Below, one piece after another: positions 9,675 to 56,700 of a DNA stretch of 64,000 nucleotides. The notes below the pieces were generated by a model that searched no databases, was not told where the DNA came from, and saw nothing but the letters and a program-made list of their open reading frames with translations. The stretch is from Escherichia coli (GTDB taxonomy: Bacteria > Pseudomonadota > Gammaproteobacteria > Enterobacterales > Enterobacteriaceae): the NCBI RefSeq assembly GCF_029227855.1, contig NZ_CP074358.1; one strand, written 5' to 3'. A program made the position numbers and the translations under genes. Numbering within the stretch: position 1 is the first letter of the stretch; each line of letters opens with the position of its first letter.

Positions 9675-10939
9675 GAAGCAATGGGGATCTCAGTCCATTG
9701 TGTTGTATACGAAGGCGAGAGCATTTCCCGTTTCATTTGCCATTCAGGGGCGGTTCCTCGCCCCGCAAACCACACTTTCCCTTTTCCCGACTGGTTCAGT
9801 TCATCGAGTGTTTTCATTAACTTTTCACTGTTTTTACGGGGCTGGATTTCATCAAATAATCCCGGCTGCGCTATACCCGATGGTGTGAAATCAGCCAGCA
9901 TGACTCCTGCCTTCATATAGCGGTACCCTTCACGCCAGACATGGTTTAAGGCTCTGCATGCGGCGGCAATAATGTCCCGGCTGTCCTGTGTGGGCAATGG
10001 AAGCTTTTCCACAGCGGCATTGCTGTAACAGGGTTCTTTTACTGCAAAGGGGGATGTCCGTACAAATGTCGTCACCTGCCGGCAATACTGACGCTCCCCA
10101 CGTAGTTTCTCTGCGGCCCGCTCTGCATACTGAACAACAGCCTGGTGCATGGCATCTTTGTCTGTGATTCGTTCACCAAAACTGCGACTACAGACAATCT
10201 GCTGTTTTGCCGGTGGTGCTTCTTCCAGGGATATGCAGGACTCGCCGTTGAGTTCGCGTACCGTACGCTCAAGAATGACGCTGAAGTTTTTCCGGATGAA
10301 TGCCGTGTTAGCCTGCGCCAGCTGCAGTGCTGTGTTAATACCCAGCGCATTCAGCTTTTCCGTCAGTCTGCGTCCTACTCCCCAGACCTCACCAACTGGC
10401 TGCAGCCCCAGTAGCTTCAAGGTCCGATTACGGTTTTCTGCCGTCAGCGCGACCACTCCGGAAAACTGTGGCCATTGCTTTGTTGCCCACTGTGCACTTT
10501 TAGCCAGCGTTTTTGTAGGCGCAATGCCCACCCCCATGGTGAGTCCTGTCCAGCTCTTTACCTGTTCCCTGAGCTGATGACCAAAAAACTCCGGAGAGAT
10601 GCAATGATTTATCCCCCGCAAATCAATAAACATTTCATCAATTGAGTAGGGCTCAACTGCGGGAGAAAGCGACTCCAGAACAGCCATGACCCGTTGGCTC
10701 ATGCTGTGGTACAGCGCATAATTGCTGGAAAATACATGTATTTTCTTCTCCAGGCGCATCTGTCTCACCTGAAACCAGGGCTGCCCCATTCTGATGCCAA
10801 GGGCTTTTGCCTCCGGGCTGCGCGCGATCACACAGCCATCGTTATTGCTGAGTACGATGACCGGTTCGTTGCGAAGGTCCGGGCGGAAAACTTTTTCACA
10901 TGAGGCGTAGAAACTGTTGATATCAGCCAGTGCAAACAT
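9668..10939 (-). CDS. impB: Y-family error-prone DNA polymerase catalytic subunit (UmuC/MucB/ImpB family)
   Basis: N-terminus MFALADINSFYASCE...VIVLSNNDGCVIARS, typical UmuC/DinB fold; 423 aa. Confidence 0.9.
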   Translation of the reverse strand: MFALADINSFYASCEKVFRPDLRNEPVIVLSNNDGCVIARSPEAKALGIRMGQPWFQVRQMRLEKKIHVFSSNYALYHSMSQRVMAVLESLSPAVEPYSIDEMFIDLRGINHCISPEFFGHQLREQVKSWTGLTMGVGIAPTKTLAKSAQWATKQWPQFSGVVALTAENRNRTLKLLGLQPVGEVWGVGRRLTEKLNALGINTALQLAQANTAFIRKNFSVILERTVRELNGESCISLEEAPPAKQQIVCSRSFGERITDKDAMHQAVVQYAERAAEKLRGERQYCRQVTTFVRTSPFAVKEPCYSNAAVEKLPLPTQDSRDIIAAACRALNHVWREGYRYMKAGVMLADFTPSGIAQPGLFDEIQPRKNSEKLMKTLDELNQSGKGKVWFAGRGTAPEWQMKREMLSPSYTTQWTEIPIASF

Positions 10940-11376
10940 CAGCGTAACTCCCGCGTCCTGTGTATCACGTGAGTGACAACACCAAAAATACAGATGTTTT
11001 CCGGATACAGTGTGCGGAATTCCGGGCTGTCTGAAACCGGCTCCAGTGCCGGGCGTGGGCGCAACAGCAGTCGTTTGACGGTGAACTCACCGTCGATCTC
11101 AGCGATAACGATGTCCCCGTGTTGTGGTTTTTCGGCCCTGTCCACTACCAGCAGATCACCATTCTGCACGCCAGCCTGGTTCATCGATTCACCGCTGGCG
11201 CGCAGAAAGAAGGTGGCTGCAGGTCTGCTGATGCAATAGCTGTTCAGATCCAGTTCCTGCTCAGCATAATCAGTGGCAGGCGAAGGAAAACCGGCCTGGC
11301 AACGATCGGCAAACAACGGTCGCACGTAACTGTCATCGCCTGAAGGGTCAGCCGGACGGTGATAAACGGTACTCAT
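10939..11376 (-). CDS. impA: UmuD/MucA/ImpA-like LexA-type S24 peptidase accessory subunit
   Basis: 145 aa; S24 self-cleaving peptidase motifs (…AGFPSPA… SM… VVDR… GDIVIAEIDGEFTVKRL). Confidence 0.9.
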   Translation of the reverse strand: MSTVYHRPADPSGDDSYVRPLFADRCQAGFPSPATDYAEQELDLNSYCISRPAATFFLRASGESMNQAGVQNGDLLVVDRAEKPQHGDIVIAEIDGEFTVKRLLLRPRPALEPVSDSPEFRTLYPENICIFGVVTHVIHRTRELR

Positions 11377-11621
11377 GCTGCAGGCAGCCAGCTGTCGTCC
11401 TGCCAGATTTCTTCCAGCAGAGACAGGATACGTTCTTTATCCTTGTCGTTGCGGGCTCCTGTGACAGATACAGACGGGGCGCTGCCCTGGTCAATACGCA
11501 GCCAGATTTCCGGGTAGTGTGGTTTCAGACGTTGTTCGATTTCATTCTGTAGCGCCTGAAGTGTGCCTGATTTGAGGTTTTTTGTGCTCTGGCGGTCGAA
11601 AAGAATTTCAATGCGGATCAT
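11373..11621 (-). CDS. impC: ImpC-like small protein, first gene of impCAB operon (82 aa)
   Basis: Start moved to MIRIEILFDR (ATG 11621, ggaga RBS); overlaps impA start; position and size match ImpC. Confidence 0.7.
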   Translation of the reverse strand: MIRIEILFDRQSTKNLKSGTLQALQNEIEQRLKPHYPEIWLRIDQGSAPSVSVTGARNDKDKERILSLLEEIWQDDSWLPAA

Positions 11622-11644
11622 GTTCTCATCTCCCTTTTCTTTTG

Positions 11645-11660
11645 CTGTATGTATATACAG
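11645..11660. promoter_or_regulatory. LexA (SOS) box CTGTATGTATATACAG upstream of impC
   Basis: Matches CTGT-N8-ACAG consensus, about 25 bp upstream of impC start. Confidence 0.75.
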
Positions 11661-12012
11661 TATTCTAATAACTGAATTCACACAGTCAAATGTCCTTATT
11701 GTGACTAAAAAACGCTCAGCTCTCTGAGTGTGTGCCTGTATGCCTGCTGTGGACTGCTGTGTCCAGCTTATCCACAGCATTATGCGCACGGTTCTGTGGA
11801 CAAAATACCTGGTTACCCAGGCCGTGCCGGCACGTTAACCGGGCTGCATCCGATGCAAGTGTGTCGCTGTTGCCGGCCTCCTCACCCGGTCACGTTTCGT
11901 CGTTCCTCCTCCACGCGCTGCGGCTTCGGGGCCGCACCTGCATTCGTATGCGGTCGCCCGGTTACAGGTGCGGCACGGCCTGATGGAGGCCGCATGTAAG
12001 AGGAGAATTCCC

Positions 12013-12939
12013 ATGCCAAACTGGTGCGCCAATCGTATGTATTTTTCTGCCGAACCGGCACAGATTGCTGAGATTAAACGACTGGCCAGCGGTGCCGTCA
12101 CACCGTTTTATCGCCGCGCCACAAATGAAGGTATTCAGTTGTTTCTGGCCGGAAGTGCCGGACTTCTGCAAACCACTGAAGATGTGCGGTTTGAACCATG
12201 CCCCGGACTGAGCGCTGCCGGACGTGGCGTTGTATCGACGGAAAATATTGCGTTCACCCGCTGGCTGACACTCCTGCAGGACAGTGTACTGCTGGATGAG
12301 CAAAACTGCCTGATGCTGCATGAACTCTGGCTGCAGAGCGGTACTGGACAGCGTCGCTGGGAAGGATTACCGGATGATGCCAGGGAAACCATCACTGTGC
12401 ATTTCACCGCAAAAAGAGGTGACTGGTGTGACATCTGGGGTAACGAGGATATATCGGTGTGGTGGAACCGTCTGTGTGACAACGTACTGCCGGAAAAAAC
12501 CATGCCGTTTGACCTGTTGACGGTTCTGCCGACCCGCCTGGATGTTGAAGTAAATGGCTTTAACGGTGGTGTTCTGAACGGTGTTCCTTCTGCATATCAC
12601 TGGTATACAGAACGGTATGGCGTGAAGTGGCCTTGTGGGTATGACCTGAATATCAGCAGTCAGGGAGAAAACTTCATTCAGGTTGATTTCGACACGCCGT
12701 GGTGTCAGCCGGAAAGCGACGTTATTGCAGAATTAAGCCGCCGTTTCAGCTGCACGCTGGAGCACTGGTTTGCCGAACAGGGCTGTGATTTCTGTGGCTG
12801 GCAGTTGTATGAGCGCGGAGAGCTCGTTGATGTGCTGTGGGGGGAACTGGAATGGTCTTCCCCGACAGATGACGATGAGCTGCCGGAAGTCACCGGACCT
12901 GCGTGGATAGTCGACAATGTGGCGCATTATGGCGGATGA
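12013..12939 (+). CDS. Conserved hypothetical protein (308 aa), Cys/Trp-rich, first + strand gene of the leading-region block
   Basis: ATG 12013 with aggaga RBS; followed by hairpin terminator; no catalytic motif recognised. Confidence 0.55.
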   Translation: MPNWCANRMYFSAEPAQIAEIKRLASGAVTPFYRRATNEGIQLFLAGSAGLLQTTEDVRFEPCPGLSAAGRGVVSTENIAFTRWLTLLQDSVLLDEQNCLMLHELWLQSGTGQRRWEGLPDDARETITVHFTAKRGDWCDIWGNEDISVWWNRLCDNVLPEKTMPFDLLTVLPTRLDVEVNGFNGGVLNGVPSAYHWYTERYGVKWPCGYDLNISSQGENFIQVDFDTPWCQPESDVIAELSRRFSCTLEHWFAEQGCDFCGWQLYERGELVDVLWGELEWSSPTDDDELPEVTGPAWIVDNVAHYGG

Positions 12940-12952
12940 AGTATGACGGAGA

Positions 12953-12978
12953 CGGGCGGGCAACCGCCCGTTTCTTTT
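12953..12978 (+). terminator. Rho-independent terminator-like hairpin
   Basis: cgggcggg-caac-cgcccg followed by tttctttt. Confidence 0.55.
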
Positions 12979-13323
12979 CCGGTAAAGGATGTCGCCGTGC
13001 TCCTCTTTTTACTGCGCCGGCTGACGCGGCGCGGCATAAACGCTGCCTGTGGTCAGTGTCCCGCGTCCGGTGGGTACGGGACGGGCGCTTTTACCGCTCC
13101 CGGCTGGCGTCGGTGACAGTGTACGCCAGCCTGTCGCCCTTTTCTGATGAGCGCCCTTCAAGCCGCTTTCGCGGCATAGCCTTGCCGTCAAAAAGACGAC
13201 GGCTGCGGTATTCCACGGTCGGCCTGACCCGTTACCGGACGCGGTGAACAGCCCACAGGCAGCGGGGAACGGGCACCACAGGGGTGCCCTCCCGGTGCCT
13301 TCTGTAAGAGAAGGAGTGTTGTT

Positions 13324-14007
13324 ATGTCCCGTTTTGTCCTCGGTAACTGCATCGATGTTATGGCCCGTATTCCTGATAACGCCATTGATTTCATACTGAC
13401 TGACCCGCCATATCTCGTCGGTTTCCGTGACCGTTCCGGGCGCACCATCGCCGGTGATAAAACCGACGAATGGCTGCAACCGGCCTGTAATGAAATGTAC
13501 CGCGTGCTGAAAAAAGATGCGCTGATGGTGAGCTTCTATGGCTGGAACCGCGTCGATCGCTTTATGGCCGCCTGGAAAAATGCGGGATTCAGCGTGGTTG
13601 GCCACCTGGTATTTACCAAAACCTACACATCGAAGGCCGCATATGTGGGCTATCGCCACGAATGCGCTTACATCCTGGCAAAAGGGCGTCCGGCGCTGCC
13701 TCAGAAGCCATTGCCCGACGTGCTGGGCTGGAAATATTCAGGCAACCGCCATCACCCGACGGAAAAGCCTGTTACCAGCCTGCAACCACTGATTGAGAGC
13801 TTCACACACCCGAACGCGATTGTGCTGGACCCGTTTGCAGGCAGCGGCTCAACCTGTGTGGCTGCCCTTCAGTCCAGACGCCGGTATATCGGTATCGAGC
13901 TGCTTGAACAGTATCACCGTGCCGGACAGCAACGACTGGCCGCCGTGCAACGGGCCATGCAGCAGGGGGCCGCGAATAATAACTGGTTTGAACCGGAGGC
14001 TGCGTAA
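13324..14007 (+). CDS. Orphan DNA methyltransferase (N6-adenine/N4-cytosine type, beta-class motif order)
   Basis: DPPY motif IV (ILTDPPYLVGF) precedes motif I (FAGSGSTCVAA); RBS agaaggag; no restriction endonuclease partner nearby. Confidence 0.85.
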   Translation: MSRFVLGNCIDVMARIPDNAIDFILTDPPYLVGFRDRSGRTIAGDKTDEWLQPACNEMYRVLKKDALMVSFYGWNRVDRFMAAWKNAGFSVVGHLVFTKTYTSKAAYVGYRHECAYILAKGRPALPQKPLPDVLGWKYSGNRHHPTEKPVTSLQPLIESFTHPNAIVLDPFAGSGSTCVAALQSRRRYIGIELLEQYHRAGQQRLAAVQRAMQQGAANNNWFEPEAA

Positions 14008-14229
14008 ATGAACTATGCCGGACACGAAAACCTTCGTGCTGAAGTGGCGGAGGTGGCCAATGCCATGTGTGACCTTCGGGCCAGGCTGAACGATATGGAG
14101 CATCGCTGTCGCTTTGATTCCGATGTGCTCGTTGAACGCCTGGCACGCCAGACGCTGTATCGCGCCAATCGCCTGTTCATGGAGGCATATACCGAAATTC
14201 TTGAACTGGATGCGTGCTTCAAAGATTAA
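14008..14229 (+). CDS. Small hypothetical protein (73 aa), translationally coupled to the methyltransferase
   Basis: ATG directly abuts the upstream TAA stop. Confidence 0.45.
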   Translation: MNYAGHENLRAEVAEVANAMCDLRARLNDMEHRCRFDSDVLVERLARQTLYRANRLFMEAYTEILELDACFKD

Positions 14230-14241
14230 GGGGGAGACGAA

Positions 14242-14676
14242 ATGTACGGAACATGCAAAACGCTCTGCCGGGAGCTGGCAGCAAAGTATCCGGGAGACAC
14301 GCCGCTGATGCTGCTTATCTGGTCCCCGGAAGAGATTCAGGCCCTCGCTGACGGAATGGATATTTCCCTGTCCGATCATGAAATCAGGACTGTCCTGGCG
14401 CGCCTGGAGGACATCCCGGAAGACCAGCGGACTGAATCCGGTATTTCTTCCGCCGCTGCGATGGAGATTATCAGCAACGTGAGCGAAAACCGCCAGGTGA
14501 CCGTCTCTGCTGAACTGCTGGCGTCCCTGATTCAGACTGCTGAACAGGCACTGTGGAAACGTGAATGGGCCGCCCGGGATCATGGCCTCGCCGTCCCGGA
14601 ATGCGTCACCCGCCGTCAGGCGGTGATTAATCAGGCCCGCACCCTGCTGAAAAACAACACACACGAAAACGACTGA
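14242..14676 (+). CDS. DUF1380-like leading-region protein (paralog of 16394-16816)
   Basis: Shares acidic helical pattern and RQVTV(S/P)A motif with the 16394 ORF; family assignment from memory. Confidence 0.55.
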
Positions 14677-15293
14677 TGTTATCGCCGCCTGCCCTGCGGG
14701 CGGCGATACAGGGAGAACGCTTAATCATGAACGAAAACTGCACGCTGAACGCACTGATTTGTCGTCACGCCCGCAACCTGCTGCTGGCGCAGGGCTGGCC
14801 GGAGGAGACGGATGTTGATCAGCGAGATCCACAGAACTATCCGGGCTGGATCAGCATTTACGTGCGGCTGGATGCGCCCCGGCTGGCGACGTTACTCGTC
14901 AACCGCCACGATTGCGTACTGCCGCCGGTCCTGGCTTCCGCCATGCAAAAACTGACCGGAACCGGGGCGGAGCTGGTACTGTCCGGCAGTCAGTGGCAGT
15001 CGCTGCCGGTACTTCCGGCAGACGGAACGCAGGTGTCTTTCCCGTATGCCGGCGAATGGCTGATCGAAGACGAAATCAGGGCTGTACTTGCGGCGGTGCG
15101 CGATGCGGTACGCAGTGTCAGTTGCCGGGTGGCAGAAGATGCACGGCGTATCCGGGCGGCGCTGACCACCACCGGTCAGACGTTGCTGACCCGCCAGACG
15201 CGCCGCTTTCGTCTGGTTGTGAAGGAAAGCGATTACCCCTGCTGGCTTGATGAAGATGACGAAAATCTGCCGTGGTGCTCGATGCCATTCTGA
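14676..15293 (+). CDS. Hypothetical protein (205 aa if coupled start TGATG at 14676; 188 aa if ATG 14727)
   Basis: Start overlaps upstream stop; alternative ATG at 14727 has gggaga RBS. Confidence 0.45.
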
Positions 15294-15505
15294 ACCGTGG
15301 CGCACGTTTTTCCTCTGTGGAAATGTACCTGGTCTGTGAGTGTGTGGAGCATATCCTGGCCAGTGGTCTGGTCTGTGATGTGCTGCGTATACCAGATGAA
15401 CCGTCCCGTCGCTGGTTTGACCGGGATATTCTGCGGGAGGTTGTTCTGGAGGCACGGGATGAAATCCGCAGCATGGCGGATGCACTGGCGAAAATCCGGA
15501 AATGA
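15272..15505 (+). CDS. Small hypothetical protein (77 aa, GTG start)
   Basis: Overlaps end of upstream ORF by 22 nt; followed by hairpin ggcgg-ggaaaaatct-ccgcc with T-rich tail. Confidence 0.3.
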
Positions 15506-15921
15506 TGACGCTGGCGGGGAAAAATCTCCGCCTTTTCCAGCCGGTCCTCGGACAGAGCACAAAGGAAGTCGCCGCCGGGTCCGCTTTACCCGGCCATGCA
15601 GGGCATGGCCTTGTGGTTTTTCAGTTATGTGGCCTCAGCGTCGTGTGCGGGCTGTGCCGTGCCTCCATCTTAGCCGGGCTGGCGTTGATGCAAGGGTACG
15701 CTTCGCCGCTGCGGTCACCCGGTCCCTCCTTCCCGTCTGCCGTGATTTTCCGGTCGTTCACCCGCTCAGATTTCGCGGTCTCACCCTGCAACTCCCGTCA
15801 GCCGTGTGCGTCAGGCTGCGGCTTCCCTTGCGCCCCTGCATCCCCGCCTGTTCGCCCGGCTTTTATGGAGGCACGGCACCGCCCGGTGTCGCGGAATATG
15901 TGAACAACAGAGGAAAACATC

Positions 15922-16347
15922 ATGCAATATGCGAAACCTGTCACTCTGAATGTTGAAGAGTGCGACCGTCTCTCCTTTCTGCCGTATCTGTTTGGCAACG
16001 ATTTTCTGTATGCCGAGGCGTATGTGTACGCGCTGGCGCAAAAAATGATGCCGGAATATCAGGGAGGCTTCTGGCACTTCATCCGCCTGCCGGACGGTGG
16101 CGGTTACATGATGCCGGATGGCGACCGTTTCCACATGGTGAACGGTGCAAACTGGTTTGACCGTACCGTGAGTGCTGATGCCGCAGGCATCATCCTGACC
16201 TCCCTTGTGATTAACCGCCAGTTGTGGCTGTACCACGACAGCGGGGATGCAGGACTGACCCAGCTTTACCGGATGCGCGATGCGCAGTTGTGGCGTCACA
16301 TCGAATTTCACCCCGAATGCAACGCGATTTACGCGGCTCTGGACTGA
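15922..16347 (+). CDS. klcA: Antirestriction protein, KlcA/ArdB family
   Basis: [31 protein letters not shown] and [12 protein letters not shown] match recalled KlcA/ArdB pattern; 141 aa. Confidence 0.8.
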
Positions 16348-17169: not shown

Positions 17170-17625
17170 CCTGATGTTGTTGTTCCTTTATCTGCTGCTC
17201 TGATTCTGACTACTGCAGTGTTGTTCTGTCTGCCGGGCGCACCTTCGGCTCCCGGCATCCCGGCAAAAGGCCGCCGGGATGTAAGGGGCAACGCCGTTTC
17301 GCGCACGCGCTCTCCGTCGTTGCGGCGGGTCCCTGCTCATTGCCTGCCGGTGCCACACACCCGTATGAGTCCCTGTCGCCGGGGGCTGATACAGCCACAA
17401 CCTGCCGCACTGACTGTCCAGGGTAAATGAACAGCCCACAAAATTTTTTACCCAAAACCCGGTAAAAAATTTTGCGTTCTGCCCAGGACAGGTGCGTCAG
17501 GCCGTGGCAGTGATGCCCCTTGCGGCGAAGGTTCTCAAACGGGTGAAGTTCATACCACAGGGAATACAGCAGCAGGTTCCCGCGAAACGTCAAAACCGCG
17601 GCTCCCGAAACTCAACGGGTGATGT
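17170..17625. repeat. Frpo/ssi-like structured non-coding repeat, copy A (short form)
   Basis: Shares 5' block ctgattctgactactgcagtgttg...cgggcgcaccttcggctcccggc and 3' block with copies B and C; lacks ~190 bp internal block; hairpin 17437-17476. Confidence 0.6.
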
Positions 17626-20264: not shown

Positions 20265-20965
20265 GTTACTGATGATGTTGTTGTTCCTGCTACTGCTACT
20301 GCTACTGCTACTGCTACTGCTACTGTTCTTCTTTTTCCTGCTGCTCTGATTCTGACTACTGCAGTGTTGTCCTGTCTGCCGGGCGCACCTTCGGCTCCCG
20401 GCTGCCTGGCGGCATCCGGTCGTCAGGCCCGACTCCGACAGGCAGCTGCTGGCGCACCTGCCAGTCTCCGCCGAACCCGCTGGCGCGGTTTCGGGCTGTC
20501 GCTACGGTCCGATGCGTGAAAACCCCGGGCTTGCAGCGACCGTTCCGGTCGCGCCACCCTTGTCGCGCCGTGGCCTGCGCTCCTGGCATCCCGGCAAAAG
20601 GCCGCCGGGATGTAAGGGGCAACGCCGTTTCGCAAACCGCGCTTCACGTCGTTGCGGCGGGTCCCTGCCCGTTGTTCTGTCCGGTGCCATTCACCTGTTT
20701 AAGCCCCTGTCGCCGGGGGCAAAGACAGCCACAACCGTCTCCGCCAGTCCAGGGGTGAAATGTACATCCCGCAAAACTTTTTGCCCAAAAGCAGGCAAAA
20801 ACTTTTGCGGTCTGCCCCCGGACAGTCGTTTCCGTCCGTGGCAGTGATGCCCCTTGCGGCGAAGGTTCTCAAAAAGGTGATGGTGAATACCGGAGGGAAC
20901 AAAAGGCAGGTCCCCGCAAAACGTCAAAACCGCGGCTCCCGAAACTCAAAAGATGATGGGGGCTG
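20265..20965. repeat. Frpo/ssi-like structured non-coding repeat, copy B (long form), immediately upstream of ssb
   Basis: Near-identical to copy C over ~620 bp; hairpin ccgcaaaactttttgcc-caaaagca-ggcaaaaacttttgcgg at 20769-20810. Confidence 0.6.
20287..20325. repeat. Hexanucleotide microsatellite (CTGCTA)x6.5
   Basis: Six perfect tandem ctgcta units plus ctg, at the 5' edge of repeat copy B; absent from copies A and C. Confidence 0.9.
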
Positions 20966-20991
20966 AAAACATCAACAGAAGGAGGCACATC

Positions 20992-25744: not shown

Positions 25745-26395
25745 GTGATTATTCTCTTTTTCTTCCTGCTCTGATTCTGACTACTGCAGTGTTGTCCTGT
25801 CTGCCGGGCGCACCTTCGGCTCCCGGCTGCCTGGCGGCATCCGGTCGTCAGGCCCGACTCCGACAGGCAGCTGCTGGCGCACCTGCCAGTCTCCGCCGAA
25901 CCCGCTGGCGCGGTTTCGGGCTGTCGCTACGGTCCGATGCGTGAAAACCCCGGGCTTGCAGCGACCGTTCCGGTCGCGCCGCCTCTGTCGCGCCGTGGCC
26001 TGCGCTCCTGGCATCCCGGCAAAAGGCCGCCGGGATGTAAGGGGCAACGCCGTTTCGCAAACCGCGCTTCACGTCGTTGCGGCGGGTCCCTGCCCGTTGT
26101 TCTGTCCGGTGCCATTCACCTGTTTAAGCCCCTGTCGCCGGGGGCTGATACAGCCACAACCTGCCGCACTGACTGTCCAGGGTAAATGAACAGCCCGCAA
26201 AACTTTTTGCCCAGAAGCAGGCAAAAACTTTTGCGGTCTGCCCCCGGACAGTCGTTTCCGGCCGTGGCAGTGATGCCCCATGCGGCGAAGGTTCTCAAAC
26301 AGGTGATGGTGAATACCGGAGGGAACAAAAGGCAGGTCCCCGCAAAACGTCAAAACCGCGGCTCCCGAAACTCAACAGATGATGGGGGCTGAAAA
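25745..26395. repeat. Frpo/ssi-like structured non-coding repeat, copy C (long form)
   Basis: Near-identical to copy B; hairpin 26195-26236; 3' part resembles copy A (ctgatacagccacaacctgccgcactgactgtccagggtaaatgaacagccc). Confidence 0.6.
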
Positions 26396-26416
26396 CCAGA
26401 GAGAGGAGAAAGCAGG

Positions 26417-53725: not shown

Positions 53726-56700
53726 TGATGAGTATCGCGCAGGTCAGATCGGCCGGAAGTGCCGGTAACTATTATACCGACAAGGATAATTACTATGTGC
53801 TGGGCAGCATGGGAGAACGCTGGGCCGGCAGGGGGGCTGAACAGCTGGGACTGCAGGGCAGTGTCGATAAGGATGTTTTTACCCGTCTTCTGGAGGGAAG
53901 GCTGCCGGACGGAGCGGATCTAAGCCGCATGCAGGATGGCAGTAACAGGCATCGTCCCGGCTACGACCTGACCTTCTCCGCCCCCAAAAGTGTCTCCATG
54001 ATGGCCATGTTAGGTGGCGATAAGCGCCTGATTGATGCACATAACCAGGCCGTGAACTTTGCTGTTCGTCAGGTGGAGGCGCTGGCCTCCACACGGGTGA
54101 TGACGGACGGACAGTCAGAAACGGTGCTGACCGGTAATCTGGTGATGGCACTGTTTAACCACGACACCAGTCGCGATCAGGAACCACAGTTACACACGCA
54201 TGCGGTGGTGGCTAATGTCACGCAGCATAACGGTGAGTGGAAGACACTGAGCAGTGACAAAGTGGGGAAAACGGGGTTCATTGAGAATGTGTACGCTAAT
54301 CAGATTGCCTTTGGCAGGCTCTATCGGGAAAAACTGAAAGAGCAGGTTGAGGCGCTGGGCTATGAAACCGAAGTGGTGGGTAAGCACGGTATGTGGGAGA
54401 TGCCGGGCGTACCGGTGGAGGCCTTTTCCGGACGCTCACAGGCTATCCGAGAGGCCGTCGGGGAAGATGCCTCGCTGAAATCCCGGGATGTGGCGGCACT
54501 GGATACGCGAAAATCCAAACAGCACGTCGATCCTGAAGTCAGAATGGCTGAATGGATGCAGACGCTGAAGGAAACCGGGTTCGACATCCGGGCATATCGT
54601 GACGCGGCGGATCAGCGTGCGGAGACCCGCACGCAGGCGCCCGGGGCTGTTTCACTGGAGGGGCCGGATGTGCAGCAGGCGGTGACACAGGCGATTGCCG
54701 GATTAAGTGAACGAAAAGTGCAGTTTACGTACACGGACGTGCTGGCCAGAACAGTCGGCATACTGCCGCCGGAAAATGGTGTGATTGAACGGGCACGCGC
54801 CGGTATCGATGAGGCCATCAGCCGTGAGCAGCTCATCCCCCTCGATCGTGAGAAGGGGCTGTTCACGTCCGGGATTCATGTGCTCGATGAGCTGTCAGTC
54901 CGGGCACTCAGTCGTGACATCATGAAACAGAACCGGGTGACCGTACATCCGGAGAAAAGTGTCCCCCGGACGGCCGGTTACAGCGATGCGGTCAGTGTTT
55001 TGGCACAGGATCGCCCGTCGCTGGCTATTGTGTCCGGGCAGGGCGGTGCAGCCGGGCAGCGTGAGCGGGTGGCGGAGCTGGTCATGATGGCCCGGGAGCA
55101 GGGGCGGGAGGTGCAGATTATCGCCGCTGACCGTCGCTCGCAGATGAACCTGAAGCAGGATGAACGGCTGTCCGGTGAGCTGATAACCGGACGTCGTCAG
55201 CTGCAGGAGGGCATGGCCTTCACGCCGGGCAATACTGTTATCGTTGACCAGGGCGAAAAACTCTCCCTGAAAGAGACGTTAACCCTGCTGGACGGTGCTG
55301 CACGTCATAACGTACAGGTCCTGATAACCGACAGCGGGCAGCGAACCGGTACAGGCAGTGCACTGATGGCCATGAAAGATGCCGGGGTGAACACATATCG
55401 CTGGCAGGGGGGAGAACAGCGGCCGGCCACCATCATCAGTGAACCGGACCGTAATGTCCGCTATGCCCGGCTGGCAGGAGATTTTGCGGCCAGCGTGAAA
55501 GCCGGAGAAGAGAACGTGGCACAGGTCAGCGGGGTACGGGAACAGGCCATACTGACACAGGCCATTCGCAGTGAGCTGAAAACACAGGGCGTGCTCGGAC
55601 GCCCGGAGGTAACCATGACCGCCCTGTCGCCGGTCTGGCTGGACAGCCGGAGCCGTTATCTGCGGGATATGTACCGTCCGGGGATGGTGATGGAGCAGTG
55701 GAACCCGGAGACACGCAGTCATGACCGCTATGTTATCGACCGGGTGACGGCGCAGAGTCACAGCCTGACCCTGCGGGATGCGCAGGGTGAAACGCAGGTG
55801 GTGCGTATTTCCTCCCTGGACAGCAGCTGGTCGCTGTTCCGGCCGGAAAAAATGCCGGTGGCAGACGGCGAGCGACTGAGGGTGACAGGGAAAATTCCCG
55901 GACTCCGCGTCTCCGGCGGTGACCGCCTGCAGGTGGCATCCGTCAGTGAAGATGCGATGACGGTTGTTGTGCCGGGGCGGGCTGAACCGGCCTCCCTGCC
56001 TGTGAGCGATTCACCATTCATGGCACTGAAGCTGGAGAACGGCTGGGTGGAAACGCCAGGGCATTCCGTCAGCGACAGTGCGACGGTTTTTGCCTCCGTC
56101 ACACAGATGGCAATGGACAATGCCACCCTGAACGGTCTGGCCCGCAGTGGTCGTGATGTCCGGCTGTATTCCTCACTGGATGAAACCCGTACTGCGGAAA
56201 AACTTGCCCGCCATCCCTCCTTTACGGTGGTTTCTGAGCAGATAAAGGCGCGTGCCGGTGAGACATTGCTGGAAACCGCTATCAGTCTGCAGAAAGCCGG
56301 ACTTCACACGCCGGCACAGCAGGCCATTCATCTGGCCCTTTCTGTGGTGGAAAGTAAAAACCTGGCCTTCAGCATGGTGGACCTGCTGACAGAGGCGAAG
56401 TCGTTTGCTGCAGAAGGAACCAGTTTTGTTGACCTGGGACGGGAAATCAATACGCAGATAAAACGCGGTGATTTACTGCATGTGGATGTGGCAAAAGGCT
56501 ATGGCACAGACCTGCTGGTTTCCCGTGCGTCGTATGAGGCAGAAAAGAGCATTCTTCGCCATATTCTCGAAGGTAAGGAGGCGGTCACGCCGCTGATGGA
56601 GAGAGTACCTGGCGAACTCATGGAGAAACTGACATCAGGACAGCGTGCCGCCACCCGCATGATACTGGAAACGTCCGACCGTTTCACGGTGGTGCAGGGC

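Follow-up and report, generated by a model that had tools for sequence, protein, structure and literature searches.

An M.EcoGIX-family methylase, its putative single-stranded DNA promoter and the coupled gene yubE in the leading region of an IncF-like Escherichia coli plasmid

We analysed a 64,000-nucleotide stretch of Escherichia coli DNA (the window) and found that it encodes a member of the experimentally characterised M.EcoGIX family of orphan DNA adenine methyltransferases, followed without a single intervening base by yubE, a gene of 73 codons. Upstream of the pair lies a strongly conserved hairpin, which is predicted to serve as a promoter while the plasmid is single-stranded. We consider it very likely that the locus as a whole is explained by a leading-region methylase that would be expressed from this hairpin promoter, with YubE as a separate early factor. 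The methylase system is already known and extremely common, and it is also present in plasmid F.

Results

The methylase belongs to the M.EcoGIX family

The methylase gene and its landmarks are the following.

13324..14007, + strand: M.EcoGIX-family orphan beta-class DNA adenine methyltransferase gene, 227 aa, from the ORF table and homology
13312..13316, + strand: methylase Shine-Dalgarno AGGAG, 7 nt 5' of the ATG, read from the sequence
13402..13413, + strand: catalytic motif IV DPPY, methylase residues 27-30
13834..13851, + strand: SAM-binding motif I FAGSGS, methylase residues 171-176

The initial annotation described a 227-aa beta-class protein with DPPY ahead of FAGSGS, and the ORF table, the sequence and the Pfam match all bear this description out. 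Residues 21-201 match N6_N4_Mtase (PF01555) with E=2.6e-38 over model positions 1-219 of 221, and the NCBIfam model NF010253 (PRK13699, 'DNA methyltransferase') scores 496 bits, well above its cutoff of 244. Because motif IV precedes motif I, the enzyme has the permuted order of the beta class. Both motifs are well kept among 16 methylase homologues: D27, P28 and Y30 of motif IV are invariant and P29 is replaced by L in one homologue, while F171, A172, G173 and S174 of motif I do not vary.

M.EcoGIX (ecoGIXM) was described from the IncI1 plasmid pESBL of E. coli O104:H4, with YfbB of R64 and YfeA of F as published homologues. The window methylase is 93% identical to M.EcoGIX of pESBL-EA11 (NC_018659.1) over 227/227 residues. 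The 15 of 227 residues that differ are conservative or surface-type substitutions, and motifs IV and I are untouched. The likeness extends to the locus, since in pESBL too the enzyme has 227 residues and the same motifs, has the same neighbours on both sides, abuts a small gene (Hp9), lies behind a hairpin and points towards oriT. The two plasmids differ in their replicons: that of the window is IncF-like, with best plasmid matches typed IncFIB/IncFII and IncFIA/IncFIC, and YubE is only 79% identical in amino acids to Hp9. Sequence comparison thus places the window methylase in the M.EcoGIX family, and by analogy we infer that it behaves identically to M.EcoGIX.

What is established about this family? 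M.EcoGIX is a low-specificity, single-strand-specific m6A methylase, and both it and M.BceJIII modify only single-stranded DNA, at the degenerate motif SAY; changing DPPY to APPA abolishes M.EcoGIX activity, and DNA polymerase I is an associate of the enzyme (PMC7736820). When M.EcoGIX was replaced by a cassette, pESBL transfer into recipients carrying EcoGIII or EcoRI fell by up to 1000-fold, a defect that was absent if the donor pre-methylated the sites (PMC4288162). Protection requires the native orientation of oriT, which implies that the recipient synthesises M.EcoGIX from the entering strand (PMC7736820). Of the gene families for which plasmid leading regions are enriched, orphan methylases are some of the most prominent (PMC11541004). 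The suggestion that an orphan methylase in a conjugative leading region could pre-methylate entering DNA is thus supported for the window copy by analogy with its 93%-identical relative, which does so (PMC4288162; PMC7736820). The accompanying suggestion that such an enzyme might rewire host regulation finds no support, as M.EcoGIX acts on single strands and chromosomal DNA stays unmethylated (PMC7736820).

Two further enzymes are useful comparators. Chains named 'Adenine specific DNA methyltransferase (DpnA)' are found among the PDB sequence matches of the methylase. DpnA, from the DpnII system of Streptococcus pneumoniae, is a beta-class N6-adenine methylase of small size, which modifies incoming single-stranded DNA and so pre-empts restriction; the window methylase would resemble it functionally in methylating incoming single strands. 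DpnA differs in being chromosomal and GATC-specific, in lying within a complete restriction-modification cassette and in serving DNA uptake by the host rather than plasmid invasion. M.BceJIII of Burkholderia cenocepacia J2315 (pBCJ2315) is likewise a beta-class enzyme of a MOBF/MPF_F conjugative plasmid, is 61% identical in amino acids to the window methylase, and shares the SAY single-strand m6A activity of M.EcoGIX (PMC7736820). Its surroundings are different, however, and the ORF downstream of it encodes 168 aa and is not YubE.

The pair lies in the leading region of conjugative plasmids

The methylase-yubE pair continues downstream into two further genes.

14242..14676, + strand: DUF1380 gene (Hp10 in pESBL), 12 nt 3' of yubE in the same operon, phrog_9024
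14727..15506, + strand: ychA-like gene (YchA/Hp11 in pESBL), the last gene before the next ssDNA promoter, split by a 1-nt indel

The window is collinear with pESBL through umuDC, DUF1281, methylase, yubE, DUF1380, ychA and klcA, and with plasmid F through the methylase region, ssb, a ParB-like gene, psiB, hok, an SLT gene, traM, traJ and traY. The order DUF1281, hairpin, methylase, yubE, DUF1380, ychA and klcA, on to ssb, psiB and psiA, is that of both pESBL and F; in F the methylase occupies 54166-54849 and yubE 54850-55071. A DUF1380 gene follows yubE in 20 of the 21 genome loci, as it does in L030-L032 and L038-L041, the other loci of plasmid type; after yubE in L021 and L029, no such gene was found. 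The split in the ychA-like gene is a single gap relative to L001 and L003 (99.5-99.8% identical), which brings in a stop after about residue 188.

From collinearity with F, traM lies at about 28.86 kb and oriT just before it, at about 28.6 kb. The methylase gene therefore lies some 15 kb away from oriT and is directed towards it, and all genes are on the + strand. The polarity of F transfer is established. Taken with the position and orientation of the methylase gene relative to oriT, it makes the - strand of the window the transferred strand and thus the template for these genes.

The pair is very widespread. At least 5000 plasmid records carry the 1.1-kb methylase-yubE segment at 80% identity or more, most of them conjugative and from Escherichia, Salmonella, Klebsiella and Shigella. 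Identical copies are found in IncFIB/IncFII and IncFIA/IncFIC plasmids, and the matching plasmids are typed MOBF/MPF_F. Within E. coli, the pair is present in 3374 of 5426 complete genomes, and 4633 of the 4689 places at which the segment occurs are on plasmids.

A conserved hairpin upstream of the methylase gene forms on the transferred strand

The spacer in front of the methylase gene contains one candidate regulatory element.

13041..13292, - strand (transferred, template): putative class 3 ssDNA promoter, a long imperfect hairpin, from its fold, covariation and identity to pESBL

Over 384 nt (12940-13323), the spacer is 98.4% identical to pESBL in DNA sequence, compared with 89.9% for the methylase coding sequence and 80.3% for yubE. 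This stronger conservation of the spacer than of the genes was absent from the initial annotation.

The - strand of the spacer folds into a long branched hairpin of -109.7 kcal/mol, against -77.2 ± 4.2 kcal/mol for shuffled sequences (z = -7.75). Its core, 13041-13292, is 74-81% identical in diverged plasmids of Raoultella, Entomohabitans, Cedecea and Erwinia and in metagenomic contigs. In an alignment of ten hairpin sequences, RNAalifold called 79 pairs, 14 of which show compensatory double changes. With this structure held fixed, 97.7% of cells pair; when the partners were slid by 1-3 columns as a control, pairing fell to 35-44% and the compensatory pairs to 0-2. The pair table also differs between strands. 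It contains 43 cells with a G·T wobble on the - strand where the + strand would have an A·C mismatch, and only 6 of the reverse kind. This bias indicates that selection for the hairpin structure acts on the transferred DNA strand rather than on mRNA.

Conventional promoter signals were not seen. A search of 12850-14700 for a sigma-70 consensus promoter gave none, neither 5' of the methylase gene nor before yubE, and within the hairpin itself neither inspection by eye nor a consensus scan assigned -35 and -10 boxes convincingly. A 2025 study of pESBL describes six operons, each with a hairpin in front of it, whose expression rises up to about 500-fold in fresh transconjugants (PMC12672017). According to the same study, the hairpin 5' of M.EcoGIX is unlike Frpo/ssi, is named class 3 and is conserved in F, and 5' RACE confirmed the start site of the M.EcoGIX operon at this hairpin (PMC12672017). 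By sequence, the hairpin of the window corresponds to the class 3 ssDNA promoter of pESBL and is predicted to be a promoter.

The class-1 Frpo/ssi ssDNA promoters of F and ColIb-P9 work on a shared principle, in which a hairpin of the transferred strand mimics a duplex promoter. Copies of this class lie in the window at 17248-17624, 20520-20970 and 25946-26396. They share no sequence with the hairpin 5' of the methylase gene, which the pESBL study classes separately, as class 3 (PMC12672017).

The junction of the methylase gene and yubE is conserved

Two features define the second gene of the pair.

14008..14229, + strand: yubE (PF27407, phrog_4830; 'Hp9' in pESBL), 73 aa, predicted helical hairpin
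13995..13999, + strand: yubE Shine-Dalgarno GGAGG, inside the last methylase codons (P-E-A-A)

A 73-codon ORF had been reported to start directly at the methylase stop codon, and this is exactly what we found: the TAA occupies 14005-14007, and the ATG of yubE (14008-14010) begins at the very next base. Since the ATG abuts the stop and the Shine-Dalgarno lies within the methylase coding sequence, the two proteins would be made together.

The initial annotation also proposed checking whether the small coupled ORF is conserved. We examined the 18 complete junctions in loci from species-representative genomes. In all 18, from various Enterobacterales, the start of yubE abuts or overlaps the stop of the methylase gene, and the string CCGGAGGC-N-GC is likewise kept in 18/18. 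The junction itself takes several forms (TAAATG, TAATG, TGATG and ATGA), and CCGGAGGC precedes it every time, encoding at once the P-E-A-A end of the methylase and the Shine-Dalgarno of yubE. Distant YubE proteins of 29-42% identity are again encoded directly 3' of a methylase of the M.EcoGIX family, of 214-233 aa. Such abutting or overlapping junctions occur far beyond chance, and co-expression of the methylase and yubE is clearly selected.

YubE matches phrog_4830 over positions 1-73 of 73 (E=5.8e-36), and PF27407, a family named YubE, is recorded for all YubE homologues of 71-100% identity. Our local copy of Pfam-A, which lacks PF27407, gave no match to YubE, nor did NCBIfam or PADLOC. Across 16 diverged loci, the dN/dS of yubE is 0.10-0.29 at dS of up to 1.6, similar to the 0.07-0.13 of the methylase gene. 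AlphaFold predicts a two-helix antiparallel hairpin (helices 7-33 and 41-72) with a pLDDT of 91.8. The most conserved residues are at both termini, MNY... and ...LDxxFxD, and these would sit side by side at the open end of the predicted hairpin.

The family is small, with 117 representatives at 50% identity clustering. The 21 YubE loci from species-representative genomes are on plasmid-like contigs of Enterobacterales or on evident contaminant contigs, and other members are in prophage-like contigs. Searches for function gave little. A profile search of PDB sequences with YubE returned chance coiled-coil matches (E>=0.2), Foldseek of the model against PDB gave generic helical hairpins and nothing with E<1, and our literature search found no functional study of YubE.

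Discussion

What does YubE do?

We conclude that YubE is, most likely, not a subunit of the methylase but a separate factor of early establishment: probably a co-translated early gene with a separable function, and we infer that it acts independently of the methylase.

The most plausible specific role is an independent one in anti-defence or establishment, for example as an inhibitor of restriction or of another defence, with YubE merely co-expressed with the methylase; we put this a little short of an even chance. In its favour, yubE lies in a leading-region anti-defence island, in the orientation that permits transcription from entering DNA (PMC11541004), and the protein is small and fast-evolving yet under purifying selection. 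Prophage homologues adjoin genes for Lar, Dam, methylases and toxin-antitoxin systems. The gene also survives where the methylase is not intact: in two contigs, a RES-domain gene stands in place of the first 86 residues of the methylase, DPPY among them, yet yubE is complete and has a ribosome-binding site of its own. Against such a role, YubE has no PADLOC or NCBIfam match and no informative structural match, and the literature search gave no experimental report on it. Transposon insertions in Hp9 left pESBL transfer to a non-restricting recipient unaltered, a result that would still permit a conditional role (PMC4288162).

A broader proposal ties YubE to the beta-class methyltransferases of mobile elements, both in plasmid leading regions and in a prophage branch, where it would either tune the methylase (its targeting, dosage or toxicity) or block restriction or another defence. 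In the prophage-like branch, a toxin-antitoxin pair is followed by YubE, phrog_331 and then either a different beta-class methylase, of 353 aa, or none, and the locus adjoins dinI and smpB. In both kinds of mobile element, YubE recurs close to beta-class methylases and anti-restriction genes. We treat this recurrence as a lead rather than a result, and we hold the proposal tentatively, as rather improbable.

Could YubE instead be a dedicated subunit or modulator of the methylase, for example one that directs it to ssDNA or to DNA polymerase I or limits its toxicity, with coupling to fix the stoichiometry? We think this unlikely. The junction with its embedded Shine-Dalgarno, kept in 18/18 loci through four sequence variants, speaks for it, as does adjacency that persists down to 29-40% YubE identity; prophage homologues, too, lie two genes 5' of another beta-class methylase. 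The published M.EcoGIX knockout may be polar on yubE. Purified M.EcoGIX becomes less active when it is purified further, as though a factor went missing, but the factor lost was identified as DNA polymerase I (PMC7736820). Moreover, the M.EcoGIX ORF cloned without yubE yields SAY methylation in vivo (PMC7736820). M.BceJIII has the same activity without YubE; the 168-aa ORF 3' of it is unrelated, and as a candidate for a hidden YubE it was rejected at an hhalign probability of 2%.

YubE is also kept where the methylase is truncated or absent, and it evolves much faster than the methylase: in Candidatus Erwinia dacicola (L024), identity to the window is 48% for YubE and 83% for the methylase. 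An AlphaFold model of the methylase joined to YubE by a (GGGGS)5 linker, built from a shallow paired alignment of 16 rows and without interface scores, reached a pTM of 0.58 with lowered confidence in YubE, and we read this prediction as weakly negative. The initial annotation called the small protein a partner of the methylase. The coupling of stop and start that this implied is real and conserved; a functional partnership is unproven and rather disfavoured by the activity of the solo clone, by M.BceJIII and by YubE beside a truncated methylase. The close and widely conserved junction is compatible with a functional link, as is the fact that YubE recurs near two architectures of beta-class methylase. 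We nevertheless regard such a link as unlikely, and the evidence speaks against an obligate unit of the two proteins.

The methylase as a stand-alone enzyme

It is very improbable that the methylase is part of a classical Type II restriction-modification system, whether its modification half or what remains of one, or that it regulates host genes epigenetically in the manner of Dam or CcrM. The best PADLOC models for it are named MTase_II (PDLC03228, E=2.2e-141), and the closest solved relatives among its PDB sequence matches include CcrM and methylases of restriction-modification systems. Yet no endonuclease stands among the neighbours of the methylase in the more than 30 loci inspected, the gene is plasmid-borne at nearly all of its places in E. 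coli, and M.EcoGIX is silent during normal growth and spares the chromosome (PMC7736820). That no restriction endonuclease gene is adjacent had been noted before, and both the PADLOC scan and the neighbour annotations agree: PADLOC models, including those for restriction enzymes, matched none of the 4 neighbouring proteins scanned, and in identical and near-identical plasmids the neighbours are annotated as DUF1281, DUF1380, hypothetical proteins and an antirestriction protein. Because neither PADLOC nor the annotations of identical and related plasmids gave a cognate endonuclease, we rejected the remnant. YubE as a controller (C) protein was also rejected, as it is predicted to be a two-helix antiparallel hairpin, matches no HTH family and has no structural match with E<1.

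That the 73-codon ORF is a chance open frame has a negligible probability, for its small size, its annotation as just 'hypothetical protein' and the lack of a match in the local Pfam-A copy are outweighed by the dN/dS values given above, a length that stays at 72-74 codons in every complete homologue, even at 29% identity, its own conserved Shine-Dalgarno, the curated families PF27407 and phrog_4830 and a confidently predicted fold; it is a real gene.

A model for early expression

We return to the leading-region methylase with YubE as a separate early factor. In conjugation, the - strand of the window would enter the recipient first, from oriT at about 28.6 kb. While single-stranded, 13041-13292 would fold into the long hairpin, and host RNA polymerase would use it as a class 3 ssDNA promoter. 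The short-lived transcript is predicted to span the methylase gene, yubE, the DUF1380 gene and the ychA-like gene, and the 73-aa YubE would be translated from the same message as the methylase. The methylase would set m6A at SAY on single-stranded DNA during synthesis of the complementary strand, such that many restriction sites would be modified before the plasmid turns double-stranded. Conversion of the hairpin to duplex would then shut the promoter off. The family, the gene order and orientation, the conserved hairpin with its strand bias, the junction and the purifying selection on yubE come from the present analysis; the ssDNA specificity, SAY, the protection from restriction, the zygotic induction and the transcription start come from published work on the 93%-identical enzyme.

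The initial annotation implied that the methylase was new, which it is not: it is a characterised, textbook-level gene that plasmid F carries as well. What is new here amounts to small descriptive additions: the support that covariation and strand bias give to the class 3 hairpin, the variant forms of the conserved junction, and the branch of YubE in phages.

Among the anti-restriction devices of plasmids by which antibiotic resistance spreads in Enterobacteriaceae, the methylase is one of the most common, and its role is already established. YubE is present in about 60% of complete E. coli genomes and, by analogy with pESBL, would be induced together with the methylase operon within minutes of plasmid entry. 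The published M.EcoGIX knockout was a cassette replacement, and no polarity control for it was found in the main text of the report (PMC4288162); yubE may therefore contribute to the knockout phenotype. Thus, if YubE is no bystander, part of the anti-restriction phenotype attributed to M.EcoGIX would be due to loss of the coupled yubE.

The region between the DUF1281 gene and the methylase

Public annotations place a gene of their own between the DUF1281 gene and the operon of the methylase and the 73-aa protein YubE, and a stem-loop is visible in folds of the same stretch.

12936-13247 (approximate), plus strand: annotated 'hypothetical protein' ORF (for example O3K_RS25895, 312 nt, in pESBL, the IncI1 plasmid with M.EcoGIX)
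12952-12978, plus strand: G+C-rich stem-loop followed by TTTCTTTT, directly 3' of the DUF1281 stop codon

The 'hypothetical protein' call overlies the conserved hairpin of the ssDNA promoter. Moreover, the call is suspect because the sequence is G+C-rich and several of its frames have long stop-free stretches. The annotation is probably spurious. The stem-loop looks like a candidate intrinsic terminator between the DUF1281 gene and the methylase operon; a terminator scan gave no call for it.

Flanking genes and further ssDNA-promoter candidates

Several other features lie on either side of the methylase and yubE genes.

9690-11789, minus strand: umuC/umuD/dinI-like (impCAB-type) operon, immediately upstream of the DUF1281 gene
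14727-15506: ychA-like gene, broken by a 1-nt indel relative to L001 and L003
15562-15903: putative 'class 2' ssDNA promoter
17248-17624, 20520-20970 and 25946-26396: three copies of a repeat of ~380-450 nt
19.7-20.3 kb (approximate): putative 187-aa class I SAM-dependent methyltransferase, placed only by homology to L003 17958-18521

As in the window, the umuC/umuD/dinI-like operon of pESBL lies on the opposite strand beside the DUF1281 gene, and umu genes frequently border leading-region anti-defence islands (Samuel et al.). The ychA-like product is 259 aa in L001 and L003, plasmids 99.5-99.8% identical to the window; in the window, the indel divides the frame into two ORFs (14676..15293 and 15272..15505). 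The window copy is either a pseudogene or the result of a sequencing error.

The segment at 15562-15903 is 95.6% identical to the pESBL segment immediately 5' of ardA and itself lies 5' of a klcA-type antirestriction ORF (15922..16347); it is probably the counterpart of the 'class 2' ssDNA promoter of PMC12672017. The three repeat copies align with segments of the F plasmid that lie immediately 5' of ssb or within the hok region. We infer from sequence that these copies would be class-1 Frpo/ssi single-stranded-DNA promoters. Farther along the leading region, 5' of ssb, the near-identical plasmid CP058011.1 carries an annotated second methyltransferase (class I SAM-dependent, 187 aa).

YubE in other gene neighborhoods

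In two contigs, a RES-domain (HEPN_RES_NTD1/RES) gene occupies the place of the 5' part of the methylase (L025 2179-4222; L026 980-3032). The methylase remnant spans residues 87-209 only and lacks the catalytic DPPY, and yubE is intact 3' of it in both.

The YubE family also has a prophage-like branch (L027, L028, L035, L036 and L037). Here the gene order is a HicAB or HigBA-type toxin-antitoxin pair, YubE and then a protein of 73-76 aa assigned to phrog_331. In L027 and L035 the next gene encodes a phage-type beta methylase of 353 aa (phrog_67). This methylase is absent from the corresponding position in L036 and L037, which terminate at dinI and smpB, an end typical of an ssrA-integrated prophage.
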